This document shows, one piece after another, positions 24,794 through 40,935 of a stretch of 64,000 nt of DNA. The notes under the pieces are model-generated. The model did not search any database and was not told where the DNA came from. It saw nothing but the letters and a program-made list of their open reading frames with translations. Position 1 is the first letter of the stretch. Every line of letters starts with the position of its first letter. Origin of the DNA: Pseudonocardiaceae bacterium (lineage in GTDB: Bacteria > Actinomycetota > Actinomycetes > Mycobacteriales > Pseudonocardiaceae); contig DASVLX010000155.1 in the NCBI GenBank assembly GCA_036384655.1, positions 10,110-74,109 of the forward strand, read 5' to 3'. Made by a program: the position numbers and the translations under genes.

Positions 24794-25972
24794 TCAGTCC
24801 CTGGAGTCGTCTGGATCGAGGCCGTGCAGGGGAAACACGGCCCGCCTTGTGTCCATGATGCCGATGTCCACGGACTCGACCGCCTCGCCACCCCACCGCT
24901 CGAAGGTGACGTTGCCCCCGTCGGACATGGAGGTGGGCAGTGGCAGATGCGGCGCGACCTTGTTGGCGACCGCGACCCAGTCGGCCGGCAGCGGCGTGTT
25001 CGGGTCAAGATCGCGATCGAGCACCGTGGCCAGCAGATGGGTCCAGGATCGCGGCACCACGCGCACGAGATCGTAACCACCGCCACCGAGCGCCAACCAT
25101 TTGCCGCCGGCGTAGTCGACGGCCAGTTCGCGCAGCGCGCGGTAGATCGCCCGGTGCCCGTCCACGGATAGCGACAGGTCCGCCAGTGGGTCGTAGCGGT
25201 GGGTGTCCACACCGCACTGGCTGACCAGCACCTGCGGCCGGAACTTCTCCAGTATCGACGGCACCACCGCGTGGAAGGCGCGCAGCCACTGCCCGTCCTT
25301 GGTGCCCGGCAGCAGCGGCAGGTTGACCGCGGTGCCCTCGGCGCCGGGCGCGCCCACCTCGCGGGGGTATCCGGTGCTCGGCCACAACGTCCTGGGGTGC
25401 TGGTGCAGGGACATGGTCAGCACCCTGGGATCGCCATAGAACGCGGCCTGCACGCCGTCGCCGTGATGCACGTCGGTGTCGACGTACGCGATGCGCTCGA
25501 TGCCGTGATCGAGCAGCCAGGAGATGGCCACCGCGCAGTCGTTGTAGACGCAGAACCCGGAAGCGTGGTTGGGCATGGCGTGGTGCAGGCCGCCGGCGAT
25601 GAACACCGCCCGGTCCGCCGCGCCGGACGCGATCTGGTCGGCGGCCAGCACCGATCCCCCCACCACACGCGCGGACGCCTCGTGCATGTGGGGGAAGATC
25701 GGGTTGTCGTCGGTACCGAGACCGTGGCCGGGTTCCCAGGTCCCGCCCTCGCCGGCGGCGCGTACGGCCGCCAGGTAGTTGGGATCGTGGATCCGTTCGA
25801 TCAGTTCGTCCGCCGCCGGCAACGGGGTCAGCGTCCGCACGCCGTCCAGGACGCCCAGCGAGGTCGCCAGCTTGACGGTCAGGGCGAGCCGGACAGGCTT
25901 CATCGGATGCTCGTCGCCCATGTCGTACCCGAGCAACGCCTCATCCCACACGACCTGCGTTGACACGCCCAT
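24794..25972 (-). CDS. Histone-deacetylase-family (AcuC-like) deacetylase
   Basis: GGLHHA, DVHHGDGVQAAFY, GGGGY motifs. 392 aa. Confidence 0.88.
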   Translation of the reverse strand: MGVSTQVVWDEALLGYDMGDEHPMKPVRLALTVKLATSLGVLDGVRTLTPLPAADELIERIHDPNYLAAVRAAGEGGTWEPGHGLGTDDNPIFPHMHEASARVVGGSVLAADQIASGAADRAVFIAGGLHHAMPNHASGFCVYNDCAVAISWLLDHGIERIAYVDTDVHHGDGVQAAFYGDPRVLTMSLHQHPRTLWPSTGYPREVGAPGAEGTAVNLPLLPGTKDGQWLRAFHAVVPSILEKFRPQVLVSQCGVDTHRYDPLADLSLSVDGHRAIYRALRELAVDYAGGKWLALGGGGYDLVRVVPRSWTHLLATVLDRDLDPNTPLPADWVAVANKVAPHLPLPTSMSDGGNVTFERWGGEAVESVDIGIMDTRRAVFPLHGLDPDDSRD

Positions 25973-26030
25973 AACCAGACATTAACGCCTGGGTCAGGAA
26001 TTCCGCCCTCGCCGCGTGTCCTACCAGCGG

Positions 26031-26879
26031 TTATTGATCGCCGGTGGCGACCGGACGACTCGGGTCGGCGCTCCACTGTGACCACGAGCCGACATACAGT
26101 GCCGCCGGCTCGGCCGGGCTGGTGATCCCGGCGACCTCCAGGGCCAGGATGACCGAGCACGCCGTCACCCCGGACCCGCAGGACGCTCCGACCGGCTGGC
26201 CGGCGCGCACACCCAGTCCCTGGAACCGCTCGGCCAGCTCGGCCGGCGGCCGCCACTGCCCGTCCGGACCGACATGGTCGGCGCAGGGCGCGTTGCGTGC
26301 GCCGGGGATGTGACCGCCCCGAGGGTCGATCGTCTCGTTCTCGCCCCGGAACCGCTCCGGCACACGGGCGTCCAGCAGCACGCTGTCGGTGGCCAGCCTG
26401 GCCGCGGCATCCGCGTCCAGTACCGGCATCGAGCCCGGACGGACCTCGATGTCGCCGGGTTCGGGACGCGGGGTGGCCGTGTCCACCGGCTGGCCCTGCC
26501 CAACCCATGCCGTGTAGCCGCCGTCGAGCACGGCGACATCGGGATGTCCGGCCCAGCGCAACAGCCACCACGCCCGCGCCGCCACCGAGCCGTTGTCGGC
26601 GTCGTAGACGACCACCGGCCGGTCCGCGCTCACGCCGGCCGCGCGCAGGGTTTTCTGGAGGTCCTCGGGCGCGGGCAGCGGGTGCCGGCCGGTGCCCGGG
26701 ACCTTCCGGCCGGCCAGTTCGGTGTCCAGATCCACGAACACCGCGTTCGGGACATGCCCGCGCTCGTACTCTCCACGCCCGGGCGGGCCGTTCAACCGCC
26801 ACCGCACGTCCAGTACGACCGGCGGTGTGTCGGACTCGCGCAATCGGGCCAGTTCGGCCACGCTCATCAACGCTCGCAT
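26031..26879 (-). CDS. Thiosulfate/3-mercaptopyruvate sulfurtransferase (tandem rhodanese)
   Basis: Two rhodanese domains. Active-site loop SCGSGVTAC. EYERGHVPNAVF in domain 1. Confidence 0.88.
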   Translation of the reverse strand: MRALMSVAELARLRESDTPPVVLDVRWRLNGPPGRGEYERGHVPNAVFVDLDTELAGRKVPGTGRHPLPAPEDLQKTLRAAGVSADRPVVVYDADNGSVAARAWWLLRWAGHPDVAVLDGGYTAWVGQGQPVDTATPRPEPGDIEVRPGSMPVLDADAAARLATDSVLLDARVPERFRGENETIDPRGGHIPGARNAPCADHVGPDGQWRPPAELAERFQGLGVRAGQPVGASCGSGVTACSVILALEVAGITSPAEPAALYVGSWSQWSADPSRPVATGDQ

Positions 26880-27084
26880 AGGCGATATCTTGCCCGGACC
26901 AGCGGCAGGTGAACGTCACCGTCGCTAGCGTTGTATCGCGATAGGTAGCGATATATCGTTTATGGTGAGGGGTGCCAGCACCTTGCCGCTGGCACCTGAC
27001 TGGTTCGCGGCCCAGTCGCCGCCGGAAGATTCGCGGGGCACCACAGTGTTGACGACTAGCATGAGGGCCATAGAGAGGACTCGC

Positions 27085-27786
27085 GTGAACGATCTCATCG
27101 ACACCACCGAGATGTACCTCCGCACGATTTTCGAGCTGGAGGAGGAGGGTGTCATGCCCCTGCGCGCCCGGATCGCCGAGCGGCTCGGGCAGAGCGGTCC
27201 CACGGTGAGCCAGACGGTGGCCCGGATGGAACGCGACGGTCTGGTGATCGTCGCGGATGATCGGCGCCTGGAGCTGACCAACCACGGCCGCGAGGTCGCC
27301 ATCGGCGTGATGCGCAAACACCGGCTCGCCGAGCGGTTGCTGGTTGACGTCATCGGCCTGGAATGGGAACAGGTGCACAGCGAGGCCTGTCGCTGGGAGC
27401 ACGTGATGAGCGAGGCCGTCGAGCGCAAGCTCGTCCGGCTGCTCAGTCATCCCACGACCTCCCCCTACGGCAACCCGATCCCCGGTCTGGACAAGATCGG
27501 TGAGGGTGAGCCGGCTCCGCCGATCGAGCCCGGGCTGCTGCGGGTGGACGAGGTGGCCCGGCGCGGCGGCGGCACGGTGCATGTTCGCCGGATCGCCGAG
27601 CACATCCAGTTGGACATCGACGTGATGAGCGAGCTGCGGGCCGCCGGCGTAATGCCCGGTGGTGCCGTCGAGGTCTCGCCATTGGCCGACGGCGCCAACG
27701 GCGTCGAGGTCCGGTCCGGTTCGGACGGCAAGTGCGCGGTGCTGCAAACAGCGGTGGCGCATGCCGTCCTGGTGTACGCCGGATAG
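27085..27786 (+). CDS. ideR: Iron-dependent repressor IdeR/DtxR
   Basis: GTG at 27085 preceded by gagagga. [65 protein letters not shown], and a C-terminal SH3-like domain. Confidence 0.92.
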
Positions 27787-27798
27787 CGGTGCCGCCAG

Positions 27799-28977
27799 TT
27801 GACTGACAACAATCCGGCGGCCCGAGCGGCCGCCGTGTTTCGCGATACCCACGGCAGGGCACCGTTTGGTGTTTGGTCGGCTCCCGGCCGTGTCAACCTG
27901 ATCGGTGAGCACACCGACTACAACGAGGGCTTCGTGATGCCCTTCGCGTTGCCGCAGCGCACCGCGGTGGCCGCCGGACCGCGCACCGACGGCATGCTCA
28001 ACGTGCTCAGCGTCGGCGACCACCGGCCGCAGCAGGCGCCGATGACGGTGATCGCGGACCTCGCCCCTGGCGAGGTCACCGGCTGGACCAGTTATCCGGC
28101 CGGGGTCGCCTGGGCGCTGCGCGAGCAGGGCGTGCGCGGTGGCGCCGACCTGGTGATCGTCGGCGACGTGCCCGCCGGCGCGGGCCTGTCCTCCTCCGCG
28201 GCACTGGAGTGCGCGGTGGAGCTGGCCCTGCTCGGGCTGGCCGGCCAGGAGTTCGGCCCCGGCGATCCGCGGCGCGCGGACCTGGCCCGGTGGGCCCAGC
28301 ATGCCGAGAACGATTTCGTTGGCGTGCCCAGCGGTGTCCTGGACCAGATGGCGTCGCTGTGTTGCACCGCCGCCCATGTGCTGTTCCTGGATATTCGCTC
28401 CGGACGGTCCGAACAGGTCCCGTTCGATTCGCGCGCGGACGGTCTGGACGTGTTGGTCATCGACACTCGGACGCATCACGCCCTGGCCGACTCCGAATAC
28501 GGCCGTCGCCGCCGCGGATGCGAGCGCGCCGCCCAACTGCTTGGTGTGCCGGCACTGCGTGATATCGGTCTCCCCGAGTTGGACGCGGTGCTCGACGCCC
28601 TTCCCGTGGATCTGGCGCCCCTGGTGCGGCATGTGGTCAACGAGAACGCCCGGGTGCTCAGGACGGTCGAACTGCTCGGGCTGGGCAAGCTCGCCGCCGT
28701 CGGACCCCTGTTGACCGCCTCGCATATCAGCCTGCGCGACGACTACCGGGTGTCCACCCCGGAACTGGATCTCGCCGTCGACACCGCGCTGGCCACCGGC
28801 GCACTGGGTGCGCGGATGATCGGCGGTGGCTTCGGCGGCTCGGTGATCGCACTGACACCGACCGAGCTTCGGCCCGCCGTGGAGAACGCGGTAACGTCCG
28901 CGTTCGCCGAACGGTCGCTCGGCGGGCCCCGGTTGTTCGTCGCCGAACCCGCGGCCGGGGCCGGCCGGGATCAGTAG
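27799..28977 (+). CDS. galK: Galactokinase
   Basis: APGRVNLIGEHTDYNEGFVMP and GAGLSSSAALE (GHMP kinase motif). TTG start as given by the ORF track. Confidence 0.9.
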   Translation: MTDNNPAARAAAVFRDTHGRAPFGVWSAPGRVNLIGEHTDYNEGFVMPFALPQRTAVAAGPRTDGMLNVLSVGDHRPQQAPMTVIADLAPGEVTGWTSYPAGVAWALREQGVRGGADLVIVGDVPAGAGLSSSAALECAVELALLGLAGQEFGPGDPRRADLARWAQHAENDFVGVPSGVLDQMASLCCTAAHVLFLDIRSGRSEQVPFDSRADGLDVLVIDTRTHHALADSEYGRRRRGCERAAQLLGVPALRDIGLPELDAVLDALPVDLAPLVRHVVNENARVLRTVELLGLGKLAAVGPLLTASHISLRDDYRVSTPELDLAVDTALATGALGARMIGGGFGGSVIALTPTELRPAVENAVTSAFAERSLGGPRLFVAEPAAGAGRDQ

Positions 28978-29082
28978 CCGGCGATCAACCCACATGACGT
29001 CCCGGGCGCAGTCGTTGCCCAGCGCGGCGTGCCAGAAAACGTCATCAGACAGAGCGTCACGGAGAGAAAGGCGAGGAACGCG

Positions 29083-30045
29083 GTGAAACTGCTCGTGACC
29101 GGGGGCGCCGGATACGTAGGCAGCGTGTGCGCGGCCCGGCTGGTCGAGGCCGGCCACGAGGTCGTGGTGCTCGATGACCTGTCCACCGGCCACGCGGACG
29201 CGATTCCCGATGGCTGCCGGTTCGTGAAGGGCAATATCGCCGAGGTGGCCGACCCGGTGCTCGCCGACGGTTTCGACGGCGTGCTGCACTTCGCCGCCAA
29301 ATCGCTGGTCGGCGAGTCCATGTCGGACCCCGCGAAGTACTGGCAGGGCAACGTGGTCACCACGCTGCACCTGCTGGACGCGGTTCGCCGGCATGCCGTG
29401 CCACGGCTGGTGTTCTCGTCCACCGCCGCCACCTATGGCGAGCCGGAGCAGGTGCCGATCACCGAGGACGCACCGACCCGGCCGACCAACACCTACGGTG
29501 CCACCAAGCTGGCCATCGACCACGCGATCACCTCGTACGCGACCGCGTACGGGCTGGCCGCCGTGAGCCTGCGGTACTTCAACGTCGCCGGTGCCTATGA
29601 CCGGTTCGGCGAGCGGCACACCACCGAGACCCACCTGATCCCCATCGTCCTGCAGGTCGCGCTCGGCCAACGGGACAAGGTGCAGATCTACGGCGACGAC
29701 TACCCCACCGACGACGGCACCTGCGTGCGGGACTACATCCACGTCGCCGATCTGGCCGACGCCCACCTTCTCGCCCTGAAGCACGCCACCGCCGACACGC
29801 ACGCCATCTACAACCTGGGCAGCGGCACCGGTTTCTCGGTGCGACAGGTGATCGAGACCTGCCGCGAGGTCACCGGACATCCCATTCCGGCGCTGCTGGC
29901 CGAGCGGCGGGCCGGTGACCCGGCGGTGCTGGTCGCCTCCAGCGAACGCGCCAAGCGGGAGCTGGGCTGGCGGCCACAGCGGGCGGATCTCGCCGGGATC
30001 GTCCGGGACGCCTGGAACTTCACCCGGGCACGCGCCGGGCAATAA
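29083..30045 (+). CDS. galE: UDP-glucose 4-epimerase
   Basis: GTG at 29083 preceded by ggagagaaaggcgagg. [11 protein letters not shown], catalytic YGATK, and [12 protein letters not shown]. Confidence 0.9.
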
Positions 30046-30107
30046 TCCCGGCCCCGACCGGCGGAGTGACAAGGTCATCATGTCGGTCTCCTCAGTAGCA
30101 CGCGGTT

Positions 30108-31136
30108 TCATGGGCACAGCAGTTGTCGGGCGGCGTTGGACGCCGTGGTGACGAGTTCTTCGAGCTGGTCCGGGGGCATCCCGGTCAGTAACGCGCCACG
30201 CAGCAGCACGGTGAGCATGTGCCCCGGATACGCGGCCTCGGCCCGGTCCAGCGCGATGCCGGCCAGCACACCGTCACCGCGCAGGTAGGCGGCCAGTGCC
30301 AGCAGACATGCCGGTTCCGCGCATTCCGGGGCCGGCGTGGCACGCAGCAGGGCGGTCCACAGCCGCTGGGCCGCCTCCTCCTCGTTGGGCTGGCCGAACC
30401 GGAGGCAGGCATCCCGGACCTTCGGGTCGGCCAGCGCCTCGGCCGCCGTCACGATGTCGTCGTCGGTGAGCAGCAGCGCGTCCTGGCCGGCTCGCCGGAC
30501 CAGCTCGTCCATGGCCGCGAGCAGCCTCGCCGATGCCGGCGGTTCCTCGTGACATGGCTCGGCGTCCTCACTCGCGCGTCGGAGCAGCTCGGCACGCCGC
30601 ACCAGCACGTCGTCGTCCTCCGGGGCCAGCGTGGCCGCGATGTCCTCCCGACGCCCGTACGTCACCGAGCCGGCCAGCACGGTGGCCGCCGCCAGCGGTG
30701 AGGCGGCGGGATCGGGCACGATCCCCTTGCAGTCGGGTTCGTCGTAGCACCGCCAGAACGCGCCCTGCGCGGTCGCGGCCGTCCAGATCCGATGGATCAC
30801 GGGAATCCCGGCCGCCCCGAAGACCCCGGTGAAAATATCCAGCACCTCAACCTGCGGTGGGCCACACTCGTCCCGCGCCGCGCCGACCACGATCAGCGTG
30901 GCCGCCTTGGTCGACTGTTGGGTGAGCGGCATGACCAGCTGCCGTGCCAGGTCACGGGCCCGGCCCGGAGGCGGCGGCAGGTCCACCCGCAGCGCGACAC
31001 CGAGTTGTGTGCCGTCGCCGCGTAGGCCCAGTACGACCAGCGAGTCAGCCGGATGGAAGCCCAGCAGATGCGGGATGGCCGCCACCAGGTCGCCGGGTGC
31101 CTTGATGGTGATCTCGGTGTGCGTCGGTGATGTCAT
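30108..31136 (-). CDS. DUF4192-family protein
   Basis: ATG at 31136 (MTSPTHTEITIKAPGDLVAAIPHLLGFHPADSLVV) matches the typical DUF4192 N-terminus as I recall it. The 911-aa listed ORF 30108..32843 is an antisense extension over the peptidase gene. Confidence 0.7.
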   Translation of the reverse strand: MTSPTHTEITIKAPGDLVAAIPHLLGFHPADSLVVLGLRGDGTQLGVALRVDLPPPPGRARDLARQLVMPLTQQSTKAATLIVVGAARDECGPPQVEVLDIFTGVFGAAGIPVIHRIWTAATAQGAFWRCYDEPDCKGIVPDPAASPLAAATVLAGSVTYGRREDIAATLAPEDDDVLVRRAELLRRASEDAEPCHEEPPASARLLAAMDELVRRAGQDALLLTDDDIVTAAEALADPKVRDACLRFGQPNEEEAAQRLWTALLRATPAPECAEPACLLALAAYLRGDGVLAGIALDRAEAAYPGHMLTVLLRGALLTGMPPDQLEELVTTASNAARQLLCP

Positions 31137-31186
31137 GAGTCCACGATCGCCCCGGTACCACCGATCCGCGGCCACTTCTTGTCCCC

Positions 31187-31215
31187 TGTGGACAACCAGA
31201 AACCCTTGTGGACAA
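31187..31215 (-). promoter_or_regulatory. Two perfect Streptomyces-type DnaA boxes (TTGTCCACA), 20 bp apart
   Basis: TGTGGACAA at 31187-31195 and 31207-31215, each embedded in ccYTGTGGACAAC. The reverse complement is TTGTCCACA. They lie in the divergent DUF4192/peptidase intergenic region. Confidence 0.6.
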
Positions 31216-31325
31216 CGGATTTGACGGTTTCGCCTGTCAGGTGTAGGTGGCCGGCGAGGCGGACCGCTCGGCCGGGGCAAAGGCCCTGGTCGACCGCCGG
31301 GCCGTCCGCGAGGCACACTCGGTTC

Positions 31326-33449
31326 ATGGACGACATGGATGCGGAGCTGACCGACGACCCCAACCGCTGGCTGGAGGACGTCACCGGTGAGGACGCGCTC
31401 GCCTGGGTTCGGGAACGCAACGCGGAGACGGCGCGGCGGTTCGCCCAGACATCCCGGTACACCGCGCTGCGCGACGAGATCCGCGAGGTGCTGGACGCGG
31501 ATGACCGCATCCCCTATGTGACGCGCCGCGGCGCACACCTCTACAACTTCTGGCGGGACGCCGCGCATCCGCGCGGTCACTGGCGGCGCACCACGCTGGA
31601 CGAGTACCGGCGGCCGAACCCGAACTGGGAAGTGCTGCTGGACATCGACGAACTCGCCGCGGCCGAGGGTGAGAACTGGGTGTGGGAAGGTGCCCGCGTG
31701 CTGCGTCCGGAGTATCGGCGCGCGCTCGTCGAACTGTCCCGTGGCGGCGCCGACGCGACCGTGCTGCGCGAGTTCGACCTGGTGGAGAAGGCCTTCGTGG
31801 CCGACGGTTTCACGCTGCCCGAGGCCAAGAGCCAGGTGGGCTGGATCGACATCGACCGGATCTACGTCGGCACGGACTTCGGGCCTGGCTCGCTGACCTC
31901 CTCCGGTTATCCGCGAATCATGAAGGAATGGCGGCGCGGCACGCCACTCGCGGACGCGGAGACCGTTTTCGAGGGCAAGCCTGACGACGTCTCGGTCTAC
32001 GCCTACCACGATCCGACCGAGGGCTATGAGCGTGATTTCGCCGGCCGCAGCATCGATTTCTACCGCACCGAACGGTATTTCCGCACACCCGAGGGCGAGT
32101 TGCTGCGCCTGGACCTGCCCGAGGACATCGAACTGAGCACCCATCGGCAATGGCTGCTGGTCACCACCCGTTCGCCGTGGACGATCGAAGGCGTCAGCCA
32201 CCCGGCCGGAGTGCTGCTGGCCATCCGGTTCGATGATTTCCTCGCCGGCGACCGGCGCTTCGAGGTGCTCTTCACGCCCGACGAGCACACCTCGCTGAGC
32301 TATTTCGCGTGGACCAGCGACCATCTGATCATCAACGCGCTCTCCGATGTGCGCAGCGTGTTGACCGTGCTCACGCCCGGCCCGGACGGTTGGAGCCGTG
32401 CGCCGCTGGCGGGTGCGCCGGACTTCGCGAACACCGACATCGTCGACACCGATCCGGACGACAGCGACGAATACTTCCTGGTGTCCAGCGGTTACACGGA
32501 GCCGGCCACCCTGCGGTACGGGCATATCGGCACCGAGGCGGAAACGCTGAAGCGGGCGCCGAGTTTCTTCCGCACCGATGGCCTTTCCGTGCGACAGATG
32601 TTCGCCACCTCCGCGGACGGCACCAGGATTCCGTACTTCGTCGTCGGAGATCCCCGGTCCGAGCCGGCGCCCACGCTGCTGAACGGCTACGGCGGGTTCG
32701 AGATCTCCCTCACGCCCGGCTACAGCGGCACCATCGGGCGCGGCTGGCTCGCCCGTGGCGGCACCTATGTCGTCGCGAACATCCGTGGTGGCGGTGAATA
32801 CGGCCCGGACTGGCACCAGCGGGCGATCAAGGAGAACCGCCACAAGGTGTACGAGGACTTCGTGGCGGTCGCGACCGATCTGGTCGACCGTGGCATCACC
32901 ACGGTGCCGCTACTGGGCATTGAGGGTGGCAGCAACGGTGGACTGTTGATGGGCGTCATGCTCACCACGTATCCGGAGCGGTTCGGCGCGATCGTCTGCC
33001 AGGTGCCGCTGCTGGACATGCTGCGCTATCCGGAGTTGTTGGCCGGCGCGTCCTGGATGGCCGAGTACGGCGACCCGCGCGACGAGACCGCGTGGTCGTC
33101 CTATCTGCGGCCGTTCTCGCCGTACCACAATGTCGCGGATGTCAACGGGAAAAATGTCCACGGGGAAAATGTCCACAGGGAAAATGTCCACAGTGGCGTG
33201 AAGTACCCACCGACGCTGTTCATGACGTCCACACGGGATGATCGCGTGCATCCTGGCCACGCACGAAAGATGGTGGCCAGGATGCGGAGCCGCGGTCATG
33301 ACGATGTCTGGTACCACGAGAACATCGAGGGCGGCCACGGCGCGGCCAGCGACAATGCGCAGATGGCCGAGAAGTGGGCGCTGGTCTTCGAGTTCCTGTG
33401 GCAGACGCTGGGCGGGACCGAGCGGGGTGAGGCCGTCAGCGGCCGTTGA
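31326..33449 (+). CDS. S9-family prolyl oligopeptidase-like serine peptidase
   Basis: ATG at 31326. N-terminal beta-propeller region, then a catalytic domain with GGSNGGLL (Ser), TSTRDDRVHP (Asp) and IEGGHGAAS (His). Confidence 0.88.
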   Translation: MDDMDAELTDDPNRWLEDVTGEDALAWVRERNAETARRFAQTSRYTALRDEIREVLDADDRIPYVTRRGAHLYNFWRDAAHPRGHWRRTTLDEYRRPNPNWEVLLDIDELAAAEGENWVWEGARVLRPEYRRALVELSRGGADATVLREFDLVEKAFVADGFTLPEAKSQVGWIDIDRIYVGTDFGPGSLTSSGYPRIMKEWRRGTPLADAETVFEGKPDDVSVYAYHDPTEGYERDFAGRSIDFYRTERYFRTPEGELLRLDLPEDIELSTHRQWLLVTTRSPWTIEGVSHPAGVLLAIRFDDFLAGDRRFEVLFTPDEHTSLSYFAWTSDHLIINALSDVRSVLTVLTPGPDGWSRAPLAGAPDFANTDIVDTDPDDSDEYFLVSSGYTEPATLRYGHIGTEAETLKRAPSFFRTDGLSVRQMFATSADGTRIPYFVVGDPRSEPAPTLLNGYGGFEISLTPGYSGTIGRGWLARGGTYVVANIRGGGEYGPDWHQRAIKENRHKVYEDFVAVATDLVDRGITTVPLLGIEGGSNGGLLMGVMLTTYPERFGAIVCQVPLLDMLRYPELLAGASWMAEYGDPRDETAWSSYLRPFSPYHNVADVNGKNVHGENVHRENVHSGVKYPPTLFMTSTRDDRVHPGHARKMVARMRSRGHDDVWYHENIEGGHGAASDNAQMAEKWALVFEFLWQTLGGTERGEAVSGR
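33147..33191 (+). repeat. In-frame 3 x 15-bp tandem repeat inside the peptidase CDS, encoding GKNVH-GENVH-RENVH
   Basis: gggaaaaatgtccac ggggaaaatgtccac agggaaaatgtccac. Unusually AT-rich for this DNA. Each unit contains ATGTCCAC(G/A). Confidence 0.9.
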
Positions 33450-34560
33450 GCTCGGGCTTGCCGGCCGCGCTCTCCTCGATCGTCGAGTTCAGGCCCTTCT
33501 TGACGGTGTTGAGGATCGACAGGCCCTGGCTGACCAGGCCCGCCGCGATCTCGCCGAGACCGTCGGTGCCGTTCAGGATGTTCACGTTGGCGCCGGACAG
33601 TCCCTGGGATGCCTCGCGGACGATCTGCGGAAGCTGATCGATGATCATCCGGTCCAGGGCGACCCTGTCGTAGGACGCGGCCGCCTCGGCCTGGATGCGC
33701 ATCTTCTCCGCGTCCGCCTGCGCGAGCACCCGGACCCGCTCGGCCTCGGCCTCGGCCGGCTTGACCACCTCGGCGACCAGCTGCTGCTGGCGCAGTTCCG
33801 CCTGGCGCTGCGCCAGTTCGGTCTGAGCCGCGATCACCTCGCGGGTCGACTGCGCCTGGGCGAGCGGGCCGGCCTGGGAGGCCTCGGCCTGTGCCTTGTC
33901 CACCTCCGCCTTGTACTGGGCCTGCACGACGGCGGTCTCCCTGGCGTATTCGGCCTGGTTGCGCTGCGATTCCTGCTCGGCCTCGGCGGCCGCCTGGTTC
34001 GCCCGCGCCTGGGCGATCTGCGCCTCCCGCTGGATGGCGGCGTTGTGCGGGGCCGCCATCGCCGCGATGTAGCCGAGCTTCATATCGTCGATCGACTGGA
34101 TCTGCAGCGAGTCGACGGTGAGGCCGATCTTGGCCATCTCCTCCTTGGAACCGTCCAGCACCTCGGTCGCCAGCTTCTGGCGTTCGGTGACGATCTCCTC
34201 CACCGTCATCGAGCCGACGATCGACCGCAGGTGACCGGCGAAGATCCGGCCGGTGAGAATGGACATCTGGTCCTGATCGGACAGGAACCGCTGTGCGGCG
34301 TTGACGATGCTCTCCTCGTCGTTGCCCACCTTGAACGCGATCACCGCGCGTACGTTGAGCGAGATGCCCTGCTTGGTGACGCACACCTCGGCGACCTCGG
34401 ACTCACACATCGCCAGTGTCAGGAAGCGGACCTTGCGGAAGAACGGCAGAACGAACGCGCCGTGGCCGGTGACCACCCGAAACGGAGTGCCGTTGCGACC
34501 ACTCCGGCCTCCCGCGATGAGCATGGCTTGGTCCGGTGAGGGAACGCGATAGCCGAACAT
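33436..34560 (-). CDS. SPFH/flotillin-family protein
   Basis: N-terminal SPFH/band-7 domain (VVTGHGAFVLPFFRKV..., IAFKVGNDEESIVNAAQRFL) followed by an Ala/Glu/Gln-rich coiled coil typical of flotillins. Confidence 0.88.
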   Translation of the reverse strand: MFGYRVPSPDQAMLIAGGRSGRNGTPFRVVTGHGAFVLPFFRKVRFLTLAMCESEVAEVCVTKQGISLNVRAVIAFKVGNDEESIVNAAQRFLSDQDQMSILTGRIFAGHLRSIVGSMTVEEIVTERQKLATEVLDGSKEEMAKIGLTVDSLQIQSIDDMKLGYIAAMAAPHNAAIQREAQIAQARANQAAAEAEQESQRNQAEYARETAVVQAQYKAEVDKAQAEASQAGPLAQAQSTREVIAAQTELAQRQAELRQQQLVAEVVKPAEAEAERVRVLAQADAEKMRIQAEAAASYDRVALDRMIIDQLPQIVREASQGLSGANVNILNGTDGLGEIAAGLVSQGLSILNTVKKGLNSTIEESAAGKPELNGR

Positions 34561-34569
34561 GACTGTCTC

Positions 34570-34830
34570 CTAGTCGAAAGCTTGAATGTCCACGGTCGGG
34601 GGGCCGAACCACGCCACGACGTCGACCGTCCTGCTCCCCCGGGTGCCGATAACCAGTACGGTGCTGCCCTTCGCCAGGGGCTCGTCGGACCAGGCGAGAT
34701 ATGCCTCGGAGCCACCCCGGATCTTCACCAGCACCTCGCCCGCGCCGACAGCGCCGCGGGTACCGATGGTGAGCACACCAACACTGCCCACGACCGACTG
34801 ATCGCTCACCACCTGATCTTGACCTCTCAC
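34570..34830 (-). CDS. NfeD-like OB-fold protein (flotillin partner)
   Basis: 86 aa. GAGEVLVKIRGGSEAYLAWSDEPLAKGSTVLVIG resembles the NfeD C-terminal domain. It sits immediately upstream of the flotillin gene. Confidence 0.7.
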   Translation of the reverse strand: MRGQDQVVSDQSVVGSVGVLTIGTRGAVGAGEVLVKIRGGSEAYLAWSDEPLAKGSTVLVIGTRGSRTVDVVAWFGPPTVDIQAFD

Positions 34831-34957
34831 CTCTTGGCGTGATCAGTGCGCCAACCTACCCGTCGGGCGTGACCGGTGGGCCCAAAACACGGATACGCCT
34901 CGGCAACGGCCCACCGGCTCGTCCAGCACCCGAAGTACCACCCGACGCTACTCGGCG

Positions 34958-35293
34958 TCAGCCCAGGTCTCCGGCGTCTCGACCTCGGCCGATACCCCCG
35001 ACCCCGACAGCAGGAACTGCTTTGAGATCCCGCGAGGACCCGATGATCCAGTTCCGAAGTTGGTCGTCGTCGCTGTGGTCGATCATCTGGACCAGGTCCC
35101 GGTTCTCGCGGTGGTTCGGCGCGTCACGAAGATATTCGTGCCAGTCCCGCGCGTACTCCCGCAGCGCGTCGATCATCTCCAAAGTCGCGTCGCCAACCGT
35201 ATCGCCGTCGACCGCGATCGGCAGTCCCGGAATAAGGACGGAACAGCCGCCGGCCTCGGCGACGACTTCTACACACGGCAGGACGGCAGACAT
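34958..35293 (-). CDS. HicB-like (UPF0150-type) small protein, putative antitoxin or immunity component
   Basis: N-terminus CVEVVAEAGGCSVLIPGLPIAVDGDTVGDATLEMIDALREYARDW follows the HicB N-terminal pattern (GG-x-V-x-x-P-x-LP...GDT..eA...eAl). The Gly/Arg-rich C-terminal 30 aa lies in higher-G+C DNA. Confidence 0.5.
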   Translation of the reverse strand: MSAVLPCVEVVAEAGGCSVLIPGLPIAVDGDTVGDATLEMIDALREYARDWHEYLRDAPNHRENRDLVQMIDHSDDDQLRNWIIGSSRDLKAVPAVGVGGIGRGRDAGDLG

Positions 35294-35347
35294 GACATGG
35301 CCCCCAATAATGGTCGGACTACCAGTAGTTATGGATATATCAAGTGC

Positions 35348-36385
35348 CTATTCAGGCGTTGGCGGCGACAGGTGGTCCACATCGAGCTGCTCACTTCGAC
35401 GGTAGCGAGCAAGTGAGTACTCATCCTCGCTGACAAGTTCGCCTGCCACAAAACCGCCACGGACGGCGCCTACGATGGTGGCGTCGTTCCTGGCCGCTCC
35501 GCGCGGCGCGCAGCGCTGAGCCCACGCCTCAGCGAGAGCAAGCCACAGATGGTAACGCTCTACAGGGGAAGGCGACGTTGTCTGCCCTGAGGAATCCAAC
35601 TCAGCGGCGAACAGCCTGTTCGCGATGTCGCCCGACATACGGCGCAGTCCGCCGTCGGGCGTACGCAGCCAGGCTCTGAGGCTCTCCGGCACGTCGACCT
35701 GATCGTCCTCGTCAAGTTCCGGAAGAACTCCAGCGCGAACGATGACCGCCAGTGTCAGGTCGTACGGTGCCGCTGTCCAGCCACGTGCGGCCTCCACACG
35801 CATCTCGGCGATATGCCTCAGCGCTTGGGCTTCGCCAGCGGAGGCCTTGTGGTACTTTTCCGCGACAATGTCAGCGAGCGGAGCCAACCAAGGCACCACT
35901 TCGTCAGGAAAAGCGAACCGTCCAAACCTGCGTGCGACTCTGCGCCCAAAGGTTCGGACCGCCATATCATCCGGACCAAGACCAGACTTCTGCCAACAGC
36001 TGACAACCGATTCCTTGCGCAAGGTGCCAATGAAGTCGAGATCGACGAAGGCATCATCGCCAACAGCGGGAAGCGCTACATACCGCGGTCGTTTTCCCTT
36101 GGCTGCCTGCCGTCGAACATCGTCAGACAGACGAACAAGAGGGGCGGCTACAACCGTGAGCCGATCTGCCTGAACAATATCGCAGGTCTGCGACAACAGA
36201 GCGACTCCGTCTGGAGTGGCATACTGACACGGATTCCCATCCGCATCTATTATCAGCAGAGCAGGAATCCGGACAACATCGCCCTGGCGCCAGGTCTTGA
36301 GTTCCGACGCCACCTCGGGTGCTACTCGAAGCGGAGTGCCGCCGTGAGTCTCTGCCGAAGTACTGGGCACGGCAGGCTGGGTCAC
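35348..36385 (-). CDS. Hypothetical 345-aa protein, no recognisable domain (candidate effector of the island)
   Basis: Long ORF in the lower-G+C island. Start set at GTG 36385, which overlaps the upstream TGA as GTGA and is preceded by ggagga. The listed ORF begins at 36433. Confidence 0.6.
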   Translation of the reverse strand: MTQPAVPSTSAETHGGTPLRVAPEVASELKTWRQGDVVRIPALLIIDADGNPCQYATPDGVALLSQTCDIVQADRLTVVAAPLVRLSDDVRRQAAKGKRPRYVALPAVGDDAFVDLDFIGTLRKESVVSCWQKSGLGPDDMAVRTFGRRVARRFGRFAFPDEVVPWLAPLADIVAEKYHKASAGEAQALRHIAEMRVEAARGWTAAPYDLTLAVIVRAGVLPELDEDDQVDVPESLRAWLRTPDGGLRRMSGDIANRLFAAELDSSGQTTSPSPVERYHLWLALAEAWAQRCAPRGAARNDATIVGAVRGGFVAGELVSEDEYSLARYRRSEQLDVDHLSPPTPE

Positions 36386-37089
36386 ACTTCCTCCGAATCC
36401 CCCAGAGCGTGGAGCAACTCGGCCGAACTCCACGGCGTGCCAGCCACATCGTGCTCGCCGGACGCGTGCGCGGCACGCAATCGATCATAGAGACTCGTCC
36501 CAGTTTCCCGCGGGGTGAGGAGCGCTGCCCGGCGCTGGTCGGGTGTTCTTCCCGGCAGCCCGTCCACTACAGACACGAGTCGCGCGAGTTGTTCGTGATT
36601 CGCGGCGTTCATCCGTCCACCGGCTGCCCAAAGATGTACGGCGCGACGCGACACTCCAAACAACTTGGCAAGCTGCTCCCAGGTTAGTCCAGACTGACCC
36701 CTCAGCCGTCGCACAAGATCCGCAGGTACCACTGGCCGCGACGCATTCAGTTTGCGCGCCCACTCAGTGGACGGTTCTTGGTCAACCGACTCAGTCGACT
36801 GAAATCTTGGTTGTATGCCCGAAACCGCATATGAAGCAAGCCAATCAGTCTCACTACTGCCGAGCTCATCCCCAGTCCACCCGACGCGCCGAACCTGGTC
36901 ACGGTCCTGAGTAGCCGCCCAGGTAGGAGCCGGCATTGGGGTCGCTACCAGAGTTCCCGTGAACGATCCCGCAAGGACCACTCCAACAAGAGCGAACCGA
37001 GTAAGCAAACCTTGAGAAACCGGAGAATAGACGCCAAGGTCACGCGTGAAGATACGCGAAGTCGCCGACTCATCAGTAGAAGAACTCAC
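36382..37089 (-). CDS. XRE-family HTH protein with a predicted N-terminal transmembrane segment
   Basis: HTH segment LRGQSGLTWEQLAKLFGVSRRAVHLWAAGGRMN. Hydrophobic stretch LLTRFALVGVVLAGSFTGTLVA near the N-terminus. The GTG start at 37089 overlaps the upstream TGA (GTGA) and is preceded by ggaggtgag. Confidence 0.65.
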   Translation of the reverse strand: MSSSTDESATSRIFTRDLGVYSPVSQGLLTRFALVGVVLAGSFTGTLVATPMPAPTWAATQDRDQVRRVGWTGDELGSSETDWLASYAVSGIQPRFQSTESVDQEPSTEWARKLNASRPVVPADLVRRLRGQSGLTWEQLAKLFGVSRRAVHLWAAGGRMNAANHEQLARLVSVVDGLPGRTPDQRRAALLTPRETGTSLYDRLRAAHASGEHDVAGTPWSSAELLHALGDSEEV

Positions 37090-37901
37090 GTCTCACCTCC
37101 GAAGGCCGCGAGAAACTTCTCAGTTACCACCCAACGAAAATAACGATACGCATTCCCAGCAAGCTCGACCACAGTCGACGCGATGGCGTCCGCGTCAAAT
37201 TGCGATCTCTGCTCCACAAAACTGTCCAGATCGAGCATCCAGCTCCGGTCCGACAAGGCAGGCAGCGTAGGGTCAATCGCGGTGCCGGGTGGCAACAGTC
37301 CCCACTGAACGCGCAGCATCCGAGAACCAAACTGATACAGACACTCACTCATAGTATGAGCGAGCACTACACCTTCAGGACGAGGGACCGCAAGTCCCCC
37401 GAGGACCTCCGGTCGCACCAGCTCGTGAATCCTCAGCAAGATGTCCGAGTCTTGAATACTATTCGTGTATCGGACACCAAGACGTTCCACGAACGGTGGC
37501 GAGATAGTGTCGGACACCTCGTTCAGAACGGCGGCGAATCGCTTGGCGAAGTCCGCGCGAGATATGTACAGTCTAGCAGCCAATGACACAAAGGTTTCCC
37601 CGATTGTAACCTGCCATGCGTCATCGGCACTTCGCAGCAGCCAGAGTTTCGCACCGATTGTCTGCGATACTCCGTCAGGACCGACCGTGAACTGCGCTTC
37701 ATGACGCTCATTGAGGATCGGATAGGAGTCCCGTAGTCGTTCAACCACCAGCCCGACCGTAGAATCGATGTTCGGCGCGCTCATGGCGACGAGCTTGGGG
37801 AAGCGAACCTGTGCCAGGACGCGGATCAGCGGCGATCGGGCGAGGGGGATCTCGTCGATCGGTTCGGATCCGAATGGGCTGCTCAACGCGTCAGAAGACA
37901 C
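37086..37901 (-). CDS. TIGR04255-family protein (uncharacterised)
   Basis: 271 aa. The N-terminal IPLARSPLIRVLAQVRFP and the overall length match my recollection of the TIGR04255 family signature (aPL.eav.eirF). GTG start at 37901. Lowest G+C in the window (48-57% on spot lines). Confidence 0.6.
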   Translation of the reverse strand: MSSDALSSPFGSEPIDEIPLARSPLIRVLAQVRFPKLVAMSAPNIDSTVGLVVERLRDSYPILNERHEAQFTVGPDGVSQTIGAKLWLLRSADDAWQVTIGETFVSLAARLYISRADFAKRFAAVLNEVSDTISPPFVERLGVRYTNSIQDSDILLRIHELVRPEVLGGLAVPRPEGVVLAHTMSECLYQFGSRMLRVQWGLLPPGTAIDPTLPALSDRSWMLDLDSFVEQRSQFDADAIASTVVELAGNAYRYFRWVVTEKFLAAFGGET

Positions 37902-38010
37902 GCTTCACACTGTACTTCACAGTGCAGTAGAGAGCGAGACCCAGATCGGAGTAACCGAGCGGCCGCTTACAGCCTGAGCCGGTCGTGAGTGTCTACGCTG
38001 AGTGATCCTT

Positions 38011-38046
38011 GGAGGGCAGCTCGGCTTAGCCACCGAGCTGCCCTCC
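38011..38046. terminator. Strong hairpin separating nrdJ from the island
   Basis: Perfect 14-bp stem ggagggcagctcgg / ccgagctgccctcc with 8-nt loop, 37 nt downstream of the nrdJ stop. No U-tract. Confidence 0.7.
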
Positions 38047-38082
38047 GGACGCGCCGCTTCACCCACATGCGTGCGCTCGCCG

Positions 38083-40935
38083 TCAGCTGCAGCCGGAGGT
38101 GGATCCGCAGCCCTCGCAGACGTAGCAGGAGCCGGCCGGACGCATCTTCGTGCCGCAGGTCATGCACAGCGGCGCGTCGGCCTCCTTGCCCGACTTCAGT
38201 TCGAGCAACTCGGTGGAACTGCCTACCCGGCGAGCGGGCTCCTTGGGCGTCTCCGACCTGGTCTCCTCCGCCGCGGCCGACGGGCGCGGGCTGGCCTCGA
38301 CCGAGGTGCGCAGGCCCTCCAGGTCCACGTCCGCGGAGTCGCCAGCCGAATCGCCATTGACCTGCGCGGACCGCTCGGCGGCGGTGAAGACGCCCAAATC
38401 GGCCCGCTTCTCGTAGGGCAGGTAGTCCAACGCCAGCCGGCGGAACAGGTAGTCGAGCACGCTGGTGGCGATGCGCACGTCCGGATCGTCGGTCATGCCG
38501 GCCGGTTCGAAGCGCAGGTTCATGAACTTCGAGACGTAGAACTCCAGCGGAATGCCGTACTGCAGACCGACCGAGATCGACATCGAGAAGGCGTCCATCA
38601 CGCCGGCCAGCGTGGAGCCCTGCTTACCGAGTTTGACGAAGATCTCACCGAGGCCATCGTCCGGGTAGGAGCCGGCGTGCAGGTAGCCCTCGGCGCCACC
38701 GACCGTGAACGACACGGTCTGGCTCGGACGCTTCTTCGGCAAGCGCTTGCGCACCGGCCGGTACTCGACGATCTTCTCCGGCTCCTCGGCCTTCTTCCGG
38801 GCGTTGGTCAGCGGCTGGCCGACCTTGCAGTTGTCGCGGTAGATCGCCAGCGCCTTGAGACCGAGCTTCCAGCCCTCGAAGTAGATCTTCTCGATGTCCT
38901 CGATGGTCGCCGACTCCGGCATGTTGACCGTCTTGGAGATCGACCCGGACACGAACGGCTGGATCGCGGCCATCATCCGGACGTGTCCCATCGCGTGGAT
39001 GGACCGCTCGCCCATCGCGCAGTCGAACACCTCGTAGTGCTCACGCTTGAGCCCGGGCGCGTCCACCACATGACCGTGCTCGGTGATGTACTCGACGATC
39101 GCCTCGATCTGCTCCTCCTGGTAGCCCAGGGTCCGCAGGGCGCGGGGCACGGTGTGGTTGACGATCTGCATGGATCCGCCGCCGACCAGCTTCTTGAACT
39201 TCACGAGCGCCAGGTCCGGCTCCACACCGGTGGTGTCGCAGTCCATCATGAAGCCGATGGTTCCGGTCGGCGCCAGCACGCTGGCCTGCGCGTTCCGCCA
39301 TCCGTTGCGGGTGCCGACCGCCAGGCACTGCTGCCACTGCTGGGTGGCCAGCTTCTGGATCGCCGTGTCGTTGACGCCGTGGGTGCGAACCAGGTCGTTC
39401 GCGGCCGCGTGCTTGCGCATCACCCGCTGGTGAGGCTCGATGTTGCGCTGGTAGCCGTCGTACGGCCCGACGATGCCGGCCAGCTCGGCCGAGCGGCGGT
39501 ACGCGGTGGCGGTCATCAGCGAGGTGATCGAGGCGGCCAGCGAACGGCCACCCTCGGAGTCGTAGGCGAGCCCGGTGGCCATCAGCAACGCGCCCAGGTT
39601 GGCATAACCGATGCCGAGCTGGCGGAACTTACGGGTGATCTCGCCGATCGCCTCGGTCGGGAAATCCGCGAAGCAGATCGAGATGTCCATCGCGGTGATG
39701 ACCAACTCGACCGAGCGCATGAACTTCTCGGCGTCGAACGTGCCGTCTTCGCCGAGGAATTTCAGCAGGTTCAGCGAGGCCAGGTTGCAGCTCGAATTGT
39801 CCAGGTGCAGATATTCGGAGCACGGGTTGGACGCGGTGATCCGGCCGGATTCCGGGCAGGTGTGCCAGTCGTTGATGGTGTCGTCGTACTGCAGGCCGGG
39901 ATCGGCGCATTCCCAGGCGGCCTTGGCGATCTTACGGAACAGCTCCTTGGCGTCCGTCTTGTCGATCACCTCGCCGGTGGTGCGGGACCGCAGGCCGAAC
40001 TCCGTGCCCGCCTCGACGGCGTGCATGAACTCGTCGGACACCCGGACCGAGTTGTTCGCGTTCTGGTACTGGACGGAGGCCATGTCCTGGCCACCCAGGT
40101 CCATGTCGAAGCCCGCGTCGCGCAGCACGCGGATCTTGTCCTCCTCGCGCGCTTTGGTCTCGATGAACTCCTCGATGTCGGGGTGATCGACATCCAGGAT
40201 GACCATCTTCGCGGCCCGCCGGGTGGCGCCACCGGACTTGATGGTGCCCGCGGAGGCGTCCGCACCACGCATGAACGACACCGGGCCGGACGCGGTACCG
40301 CCGGAGGACAGCAGCTCCTTGGAGGAGCGGATGCGGGAGAGGTTCACGCCGGCACCCGAGCCGCCCTTGAAGATCAGGCCCTCTTCCCGGTACCAGTTGA
40401 GGATCGAGTCCATCGTGTCGTCGACGGACAGGATGAAGCAGGCCGACACCTGCTGCGGGGAGGGCGTGCCAACGTTGAACCAGACCGGCGAGTTGAAGCT
40501 GAACACCTGGTGCACCAGCATCCAGGTCAGCTCATGGCCGAAGATCGTGGCGTCCTCGTCGGTGCCGAAGTAGCCGTTGTCCAGTCCGGTTTGGACGTAG
40601 GCCCGCACGACCCGGTCGATGAGTTGCTTCAGGCTGTGCTCGCGCTGCGGCGTACCAAGCGCGCCACGGAAGTATTTGCTGGTGACGATGTTGACCGCGT
40701 TGACGGACCAGAAGTCCGGGAACTCGACGCCACGCTGCTCGAAATTGATCGAGCCGTCCCGCCAGTTGGTCATGACGACATCGCGGCTCTCCCAGACCAC
40801 GTCGTCGTAGGGGTGCACACCCGCCGTGGTGTGGACGCGCCGCACCCGAAGCCCCGTCTTCTTCGGCTTGCCGGACCCGCGTGTCGCGGGCGCGCCGACC
40901 GTTTCGGTCATCAGCCGTTCCCTCTCCCTTTTCAT
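38083..40935 (-). CDS. nrdJ: Class II (adenosylcobalamin-dependent) ribonucleotide reductase
   Basis: 950 aa. NPCSEY, TGVEPD, and a C-terminal Cys-rich tail CMTCGTKMRPAGSCYVCEGCGSTSGCS. Co-located with nrdR as in other actinobacteria. Confidence 0.93.
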   Translation of the reverse strand: MKRERERLMTETVGAPATRGSGKPKKTGLRVRRVHTTAGVHPYDDVVWESRDVVMTNWRDGSINFEQRGVEFPDFWSVNAVNIVTSKYFRGALGTPQREHSLKQLIDRVVRAYVQTGLDNGYFGTDEDATIFGHELTWMLVHQVFSFNSPVWFNVGTPSPQQVSACFILSVDDTMDSILNWYREEGLIFKGGSGAGVNLSRIRSSKELLSSGGTASGPVSFMRGADASAGTIKSGGATRRAAKMVILDVDHPDIEEFIETKAREEDKIRVLRDAGFDMDLGGQDMASVQYQNANNSVRVSDEFMHAVEAGTEFGLRSRTTGEVIDKTDAKELFRKIAKAAWECADPGLQYDDTINDWHTCPESGRITASNPCSEYLHLDNSSCNLASLNLLKFLGEDGTFDAEKFMRSVELVITAMDISICFADFPTEAIGEITRKFRQLGIGYANLGALLMATGLAYDSEGGRSLAASITSLMTATAYRRSAELAGIVGPYDGYQRNIEPHQRVMRKHAAANDLVRTHGVNDTAIQKLATQQWQQCLAVGTRNGWRNAQASVLAPTGTIGFMMDCDTTGVEPDLALVKFKKLVGGGSMQIVNHTVPRALRTLGYQEEQIEAIVEYITEHGHVVDAPGLKREHYEVFDCAMGERSIHAMGHVRMMAAIQPFVSGSISKTVNMPESATIEDIEKIYFEGWKLGLKALAIYRDNCKVGQPLTNARKKAEEPEKIVEYRPVRKRLPKKRPSQTVSFTVGGAEGYLHAGSYPDDGLGEIFVKLGKQGSTLAGVMDAFSMSISVGLQYGIPLEFYVSKFMNLRFEPAGMTDDPDVRIATSVLDYLFRRLALDYLPYEKRADLGVFTAAERSAQVNGDSAGDSADVDLEGLRTSVEASPRPSAAAEETRSETPKEPARRVGSSTELLELKSGKEADAPLCMTCGTKMRPAGSCYVCEGCGSTSGCS

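Follow-up and report, generated by a model that had tools for sequence, protein, structure and literature searches.

The DNA considered here is a 64,000-nt stretch of a Pseudonocardiaceae bacterium metagenome-assembled genome (MAG; contig DASVLX010000155.1), called the window throughout, and all coordinates refer to it. Its minus strand carries a cassette of three co-oriented open reading frames (ORFs), which encode a TIGR04255-family protein, a helix-turn-helix (HTH) protein, and a third protein designated P345, with a 20-bp element upstream of the first gene. A sequence-only reading of this locus had described two GTGA overlaps accompanied by Shine-Dalgarno motifs, assigned the first ORF to TIGR04255, and proposed that the three proteins form one functional unit. 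The overlaps and motifs have the coordinates and sequences that were claimed, the assignment holds by a wide margin in bit score (129 bits against a cut-off of 30), and the proposal of a single unit is borne out by the homologous loci described below. The features of the cassette, all on the minus strand, are as follows.

37902 to 37921, minus strand: candidate operator and core promoter, TGTGAAGTACAGTGTGAAGC, with two GTGAA repeats around a -10-like TACAGT
37086 to 37901, minus strand: gene 1, TIGR04255 family, 271 amino acids (aa), by NCBIfam match
37096 to 37100, minus strand: GGAGG, the Shine-Dalgarno motif of gene 2, formed by the codons for the conserved Gly-Gly pair at the C-terminal end of gene 1
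37086 to 37089, minus strand: junction 1, GTGA, where the stop of gene 1 overlaps the start of gene 2; conserved across the family
36382 to 37089, minus strand: gene 2, 235 aa, with a variable N-terminal region of ~110 aa, an Xre-type HTH at ~aa 121–160, and an MbcA/ParS-like C-terminal region
36389 to 36394, minus strand: GGAGGA, a putative Shine-Dalgarno motif for gene 3, separated by 3 nt from the GTG at 36385
36382 to 36385, minus strand: junction 2, GTGA, where the stop of gene 2 overlaps a candidate start of gene 3; lineage-specific and not a family feature
35348 to 36385, minus strand: gene 3 (P345), 345 aa if it starts at 36385, with a MazF/PemK-like N-terminal fold and invariant QTCD and RFGRFxFPDE motifs

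Gene order and host range of the cassette

Relatives of the cassette were gathered with a profile of P345 homologues, which identified 248 in contigs sampled at one genome per species, and the best 80 loci were kept. When the three window proteins were searched against the 80 loci by tblastn, the order TIGR04255, HTH, P345 was kept in 77. The hosts belong to at least nine phyla (Actinomycetota, Cyanobacteriota, Myxococcota, Pseudomonadota, Planctomycetota, Chloroflexota, Deinococcota, Gemmatimonadota, and Spirochaetota), with the Pseudomonadota including Alpha-, Beta-, and Gammaproteobacteria. Additionally, of ten TIGR04255 genes located on plasmids, nine have detectable homologues of HTH and P345 downstream. 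Pairwise divergences correlate to the same degree for any two of the three proteins (r ~0.83 for each pair; partial r 0.44–0.47): the three genes are inherited as one block, and partners are not swapped. The kept gene order and the parallel divergences support the three genes as one unit.

More distant copies retain parts of this arrangement. A divergent copy from Acinetobacter (24% identity) has the same three-gene layout and an ATGA at junction 1; its two downstream genes are unscored by the HTH and P345 profiles and are linked to the family only through the shared motifs RQGG and SCD. Divergent TIGR04255 cassettes also occur on a plasmid of Rhizobium sp. CB3060 (L089), beside a multiubiquitin/ThiF/DUF6527 cluster with IS110, and on a Gloeocapsa plasmid (L090), beside a SLATT-domain gene. 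The two downstream genes of the Rhizobium copy are not recognized as HTH or P345 by the profiles, and it may be a variant with other partners. A search for Rosetta-stone fusions yielded long TIGR04255 or P345 homologues whose additional N- or C-terminal extensions were spurious. The 388-aa TIGR04255 homologue P0156, for instance, owes its long N-terminal extension to a gene call that runs through the operator, and the 'VKYSVKV' within it is translated GTGAAGTACAGTGTGAAGGT.

Junction 1 and the upstream element

The TIGR04255 ORF (37901–37086) terminates in TTC GGA GGT GAG ACG TGA, and its TGA (37088–37086) overlaps the GTG (37089–37087) that opens the 235-aa HTH ORF (37089–36382), with a GGAGG positioned at a fixed distance of 6 nt before this start codon. 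A single junction of the form NTGA is weak evidence, as overlaps are routine: in most prokaryotic groups they occur in ~15% of the gene pairs that share a direction, and in the cyanobacteria in <10% (PMC6728339). A crude ORF list based on third-codon-position GC content (GC3) suggests a further 4-nt overlap in the window itself, at 55135–55138 on the minus strand, between two high-GC3 genes (54380–55138 and 55135–57051), which shows how common such junctions are in this genome. Across the family, 57 of 77 loci have a 4-nt overlap at junction 1 (ATGA in 44, GTGA in 13) and three more a 1-nt overlap; among these loci are all the cyanobacterial and proteobacterial ones examined and nearly all the myxobacterial ones.

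The Shine-Dalgarno motif lies within a conserved stretch of protein, the C-terminus of TIGR04255, which has the form [F/Y]-G-G-x-x-stop. The first Gly codon of this tail is GGA, a rare codon, in 29 of 46 loci, where 10.5 were expected from the loci's own glycine codon usage (binomial p = 1e-9), and among the high-GC loci it is GGA in 15 of 31, compared to 5.3 expected. As this enrichment concerns synonymous sites, it points to selection on the Shine-Dalgarno motif inside gene 1. Translational coupling from TIGR04255 to the HTH gene is thus plausible, based on the conservation of the overlap and on the synonymous choice that favors GGAGG. RNA structure was unexceptional at both junctions (z of -0.65 and -1.57), and a hairpin masking the downstream start is not supported.

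Upstream of TIGR04255, the two GTGAA repeats of the element (37920–37916 and 37908–37904) are spaced 12 nt apart with TACAGT (37914–37909) between them, and TACAGT ends 7 nt before the GTG start of TIGR04255. The pattern GTGAA-N7-GTGAA (consensus TGTGAAGTAGAGTGTGAAGT) is found upstream of TIGR04255 in 68 of 81 loci; it occurs 76 times in 910 kb of locus DNA, with 72 of these occurrences inside the ~200-bp windows upstream of TIGR04255. Within the 64-kb window it occurs once (37904–37920), compared to 0.06 expected. A literature search returned no paper on the 18-mer element, Rfam models gave nothing near threshold over 34500–38300, and a scan for consensus promoters and terminators produced weak matches inside P345 only.

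The position of the element differs between phyla. In Actinobacteria, it lies on the coding strand, with 2 nt between the second repeat and the start codon in nearly all loci, which leaves 7 nt between the end of the central TAnnGT and the start codon. In this phylum, -10 boxes are of the TANNNT type, and it is common for mRNAs to be leaderless. A -10-like TAnnGT at 7 nt from the start codon suggests that the actinobacterial TIGR04255 transcript is leaderless and that the repeats overlap its core promoter. In the other phyla, the element is inverted and located 30–110 nt upstream of TIGR04255, and in 12 of 29 loci a TAnnnT lies 16–17 nt beyond its proximal TTCACA, an arrangement that looks like a -35/-10 pair. 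This flip in orientation argues for an operator that acts at the level of DNA over an RNA motif. Individual loci elaborate on the pattern: a Piscinibacter locus (L050) has five GTGAA units upstream of TIGR04255, mostly at 12-nt spacing and iteron-like, and two loci (L038 and L046) carry two oppositely oriented elements ~29 nt apart, where the TTCACA of one lies 17 nt from the TAGAGT of the other, so that the -35 comes from one copy and the -10 from its partner.

The three proteins and their genomic setting

The TIGR04255 protein matches its hidden Markov model over profile positions 2–252 of 252 (129.1 bits, E 2.4e-37). Its AlphaFold2 model (predicted local distance difference test, pLDDT, 94) consists of two beta-alpha-beta4-alpha repeats, and from this order of secondary structure the predicted fold looks TBP-like. 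Foldseek against the PDB returned no convincing match (template-modelling score, TM, <0.35; weak AdoMetDC, Med18, START, and Bet v 1), a sequence search of the PDB returned noise only, and Foldseek against BFVD gave weak matches to a giant-virus TBP, poxvirus VETF-L-like proteins, and a homologue of African swine fever virus B263R (TM 0.2–0.43). The invariant charged residues of the family include R140, R144, D224, D226, and R256.

Single-sequence scans of the HTH protein detect weak, sub-threshold HTH matches at residues ~121–176. A profile of 53 family members matches the Mycobacterium tuberculosis antitoxin MbcA (6fkg) with an E-value of 2.4e-5, aligned to MbcA residues 18–104 of 115, a span that takes in the C-terminal part as well as the HTH. 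A second match is to another Xre/MbcA/ParS-type chain (8qnl, E 0.018). The Pfam family PF20432 matches 19 of the 53 members at E<=0.01 (best 5.8e-5), and PF09722 is undetected in the 53. The most conserved part of the protein is the recognition-helix region, SGLTWxQLAxLFGVSRRxVHxWAxG, and this near-invariant helix would be the obvious binder of the upstream element. Close relatives (44–50% identity) align over 96–100% of the 235 aa, which means that the poorly conserved N-terminal ~110 aa are coding and supports the start at the overlap. This N-terminal extension contains a hydrophobic segment rich in Ala, Gly, Val, and Thr at residues ~32–50 (36940–37000, minus strand; maximum Kyte-Doolittle value of 1.85 over 19 residues). 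Similar segments, often followed by G-T/S-S, are present in many actinobacterial, myxobacterial, and planctomycete homologues and not in cyanobacterial ones, and the segment may be a membrane anchor or a partner-binding helix.

It should be noted that the middle gene seems to be systematically under-annotated. In this MAG, NCBI numbers P345 (HEX7660272.1) and TIGR04255 (HEX7660273.1) consecutively, so that no protein record exists there for the HTH gene between them. The gene tables of Kocuria and Paenarthrobacter plasmids (L081 and L083) likewise omit the HTH gene, although its ORF is intact and matches the family profile with E-values of 1e-26 to 1e-45.

P345 belongs to a family of 2,367 clusters at 50% identity (E <= 1e-3). 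Its AlphaFold2 model is confident (pLDDT 92; predicted TM-score, pTM, 0.82), and for the N-terminal ~130 aa (residues ~20–130) the top Foldseek matches in the PDB are almost all MazF, EndoA, and MoxT, with a TM to target of 0.60–0.66 and a probability of 1.0. An hhalign comparison with Bacillus subtilis EndoA is weak but collinear, pairing RQGDV with KRGDV, SQTCD with IQND, and DLxxIxTxxKxxL with LEQIRTIDKQRL. Conversely, PF02452 (PemK_toxin) has no match in 56 P345 members even at E<=1, and a sequence-profile search of the PDB returned noise only and no MazF. As modelled, P345 has a MazF fold and is not a MazF-family member by sequence. The residues Q66, C68, D69, R152, R156, R196, and D335 are invariant, and no relative was detected for the C-terminal ~200 aa.

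The cassette stands apart from its surroundings in composition, with a GC3 of 0.58–0.64 compared to 0.91–0.92 for the flanking flotillin gene and nrdJ, the gene of a class II ribonucleotide reductase. One further feature lies at its upstream side.

38011 to 38046, minus strand: perfect 14-bp inverted repeat (GGAGGGCAGCTCGG / CCGAGCTGCCCTCC) directly after the nrdJ stop, with an 8-nt loop and no T-tract

This repeat probably serves as a terminator or boundary on the upstream side of the cassette. It may terminate nrdJ, and the low-GC insertion has its upstream edge here. Downstream of P345, a 111-aa ORF (34958–35293, minus strand) has a coding-like GC content by codon position (0.74/0.45/0.74), with values between those of the cassette and of the core genes. 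It matches nothing in Pfam and has no counterpart beside the cassette in any related locus; it may be an independent small gene inside the low-GC stretch. Elsewhere in the window, very long ORFs overlap on opposite strands at 25900–33449, two on the minus strand (1405 aa and 911 aa) and one on the plus strand (757 aa). In the 911-aa ORF the C-terminal ~310 aa alone match a family (DUF4192), and the overlapping ORFs may be an effect of high GC content.

Among the relatives, the neighbors of the cassette are tyrosine integrases, IS110, relaxases, type IV secretion genes, type I restriction-modification genes, reverse transcriptases, PIN genes, SLATT genes, and the multiubiquitin/ThiF cluster, and a census of 135 flanking ORFs identified no recurring fourth gene. 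A search for flanking direct repeats that could represent att sites found only short, chance-like pairs. In phage genomes, P345 is absent and the cassette essentially absent; TIGR04255 does occur in two contigs labelled as Acinetobacter phage, of which the one examined (208 kb) mixes outer-membrane, sortase-system, and phage genes.

Candidate functions of the cassette

Across phyla, the cassette retains its gene order, the overlap at junction 1 with a Shine-Dalgarno motif inside gene 1, and the upstream element, while its composition is foreign and its neighbors vary by locus. We consider it probable that the three ORFs and the 20-bp element constitute a self-contained, horizontally mobile, and autoregulated operon of a toxin-antitoxin-like or defense type. 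In such an operon, a promoter embedded in the element would start transcription, with a leaderless TIGR04255 mRNA in Actinobacteria. Ribosomes that finish TIGR04255 would re-initiate at the overlapping GTG or ATG of the HTH gene, aided by the GGAGG in the [F/Y]GG tail, and the HTH protein would then be made whenever TIGR04255 is made. The MbcA/ParS-like HTH protein would act both as an autorepressor on the GTGAAG direct repeats and as the neutralizer of an effector. The most likely candidate for this effector is P345, which combines a MazF-fold domain at its N-terminus with a novel one at its C-terminus. Translation of P345 would follow directly after the HTH gene, possibly through the second GTGA overlap at this locus and across a short gap in other loci. 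TIGR04255 would be a third, obligatory subunit, perhaps in the role of a sensor, an adaptor, or a co-regulator.

The closest known parallels are found among toxin-antitoxin modules, and each is partial. The HTH profile resembles the antitoxin of the RES-Xre systems (MbcT-MbcA of M. tuberculosis, ParST, and NatR-NatT) across the HTH and C-terminal regions, the HTH gene sits directly upstream of a putative effector as xre precedes res, and autoregulation of the promoter is plausible. The cassette differs from these systems in that it lacks a RES-domain toxin, its HTH protein has an additional N-terminal region of ~110 aa with the hydrophobic segment, TIGR04255 is present upstream as a third gene whose end overlaps that of the HTH protein and would couple the two, and direct repeats take the place of a palindrome in the candidate operator. 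Compared to MazF, PemK, and EndoA of the MazEF and PemIK systems, residues ~20–130 of P345 share the predicted fold and a motif order collinear with B. subtilis EndoA, whereas P345 has no PF02452 match or conserved catalytic Arg/Thr, contains an extra domain of ~200 aa and other invariant residues (QTCD and RFGRFxFPDE), and is accompanied by an Xre-type partner instead of one of MazE/AbrB type. Tripartite toxin-antitoxin modules include the HigBA-SecB-like toxin-antitoxin-chaperone systems, paaR2-paaA2-parE2, and omega-epsilon-zeta. Like these, the cassette has three co-oriented, tightly packed genes that move together, one of them regulator- or antitoxin-like, but none of its three proteins is homologous to their components.

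At the level of translation, junction 1 resembles the overlapping pairs described for termination-reinitiation (Huber et al. 2019, PMC6728339; Front Microbiol 2023, PMC10666635), with an ATGA or GTGA overlap, a Shine-Dalgarno motif inside the upstream gene, and no evident difference in mechanism, and one account of overlapping gene pairs describes them as often encoding the subunits of heteromeric complexes (PMC10666635). It stands out in that the overlap is conserved over at least nine phyla, including the cyanobacteria, where overlaps and the use of Shine-Dalgarno motifs are infrequent, and in that the motif is embedded in a conserved protein motif. A more specific version of the proposal, which we advance only tentatively and would not be surprised to see fail, is a widespread and previously undescribed tripartite conflict system in which a TBP-like TIGR04255 is obligatorily co-translated with an MbcA-like antitoxin/repressor, the pair controls a new multidomain MazF-fold effector, and the nearly invariant direct-repeat element is promoter-like in both orientations, serving as the -10 of a leaderless mRNA in Actinobacteria and supplying a -35-like TTCACA in other phyla.

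Several results weigh against a toxin-antitoxin or defense operon. The sampling of loci was conditional on P345 and start codons were computationally inferred. P345 has no match in Pfam, NCBIfam, or PADLOC, and on the provisional evidence of the weak hhalign alignment, the catalytic Arg and Thr of MazF (R25 and T48 in B. subtilis EndoA) fall on variable or gapped columns, which makes an RNase activity of P345 doubtful. More generally, PADLOC-DB v2 has no match for TIGR04255 or P345 and only marginal HTH matches for the HTH protein. The window HTH protein itself falls below the gathering cut-off of PF20432 (22.8 bits, cut-off 25.8), and a RES-domain toxin has no match in either neighbor (Pfam, NCBIfam, and PADLOC). 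The mirror-tree correlations, being equal for all three pairs, cannot identify the contact partner of the HTH protein. Direct repeats are also unusual targets for a dimeric Xre-type HTH, and the TBP-like TIGR04255 could bind the DNA instead. The literature search returned no paper on TIGR04255.

Two further points on the same side concern junction 2. There the HTH ORF terminates in GGAGGAAGTGTGA and its TGA (36384–36382) overlaps a GTG (36385–36383) in the frame of the long ORF 36433–35348 (minus strand), which has alternative in-frame GTGs at 36433, 36370, and 36313. The first point is that a 4-nt overlap is present in 11 of 77 loci, near the ~15% background, and a 1-nt overlap in five, with gaps of 0–23 nt or small overlaps at the others; the packing is tight and the architecture unconserved. 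The second is that the NCBI annotation of the same MAG gives P345 as 321 aa, with a start at 36313, 72 nt downstream of 36385. These observations are also what would be expected if junction 2, and possibly junction 1 at this locus, were incidental packing, with P345 starting independently at GTG 36370 or 36313 and co-transcription as the sole link between the genes. The homology of P345, which begins at RQGDV (residue 33 of the 345-aa form), cannot choose among the starts, and the spacing between GGAGGA and the GTG at 36385 is short. Against incidental packing, most loci have a P345 frame that begins at the HTH stop or no more than ~23 nt from it, so that an untranslated gap of 69 nt would be atypical; the GAGG at GTG 36313 is directly adjacent to it, with zero spacing; and the ENA/Logan (Prodigal-type) gene calls, retrieved by exact-sequence look-up, give a 235-aa HTH protein and a 345-aa P345 that starts at 36385. 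The conservation of junction 1 and the codon test additionally argue against chance. The family-wide start of P345 beside the HTH stop, together with the GGAGGA motif, favors 36385, and we regard incidental packing as unlikely.

The sequence-only reading had treated both junctions as translational couplings of the same 4-nt architecture, had suggested that their conservation in homologous cassettes be checked, and had taken them to imply a fixed stoichiometry. That architecture is common to both junctions in this window, but across the family, coupling is plausible at junction 1 (57/77 and the GGA enrichment) and does not extend to junction 2 (11/77, with its start disputed by NCBI). A fixed stoichiometry does not follow, as a 4-nt overlap would tie downstream translation to upstream translation and does not by itself set the ratio of the products. 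The suggestion that a regulator or antitoxin precedes the effector fits an HTH profile similar to MbcA and a P345 with a MazF-fold N-terminal domain.

The roles could also be distributed differently, with TIGR04255 as the toxin and the HTH protein as the antitoxin of a reverse-order module like HigBA or MqsRA, and P345 as an accessory or second effector. In that case, the strictly conserved ATGA coupling would act as a safeguard by which the antitoxin is made whenever the toxin is. The TIGR04255/HTH junction is the most conserved of the cassette, the invariant charged residues of TIGR04255 are compatible with an active site, and P345 lacks the catalytic residues of MazF. The fold of TIGR04255, however, is nearer to TBP-like or helix-grip binding proteins than to known toxins, albeit with weak matches, and the toxin-type fold belongs to P345. 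The antitoxin gene precedes the toxin gene in Xre/MbcA-type systems, and the co-evolution is equal for all three pairs. We judge this distribution of roles improbable. Least probable of all is a mobile regulatory module without a role in conflict, in which a complex of the TBP-like TIGR04255 and the HTH protein occupies the GTGAAG repeats, with P345 as an enzyme or regulator that is not toxic. In its favor are the extreme conservation of the element, the near-invariant recognition helix (SRRxVHxW), the TBP-like fold matches, and the missing defense-database match; against it stand a sporadic distribution, foreign composition, and mobile-element flanks, an HTH protein that resembles MbcA beside a P345 with a MazF fold, and the occurrence of one element in the 64-kb window, the only DNA searched in this respect, which argues against a regulon.

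The analysis defines the anatomy of an uncharacterized, broadly distributed three-gene module that is poorly handled by annotation pipelines. It yields hypotheses of a conserved operator, a probable leaderless start in Actinobacteria, and an ancient coupling through a Shine-Dalgarno motif in a conserved protein tail, as well as of an antitoxin-like middle protein and a MazF-fold effector family for which there is no Pfam model. Should the cassette be a toxin-antitoxin or defense system, this would add a new effector family and provide a function for TIGR04255, a family that has so far been just a number.

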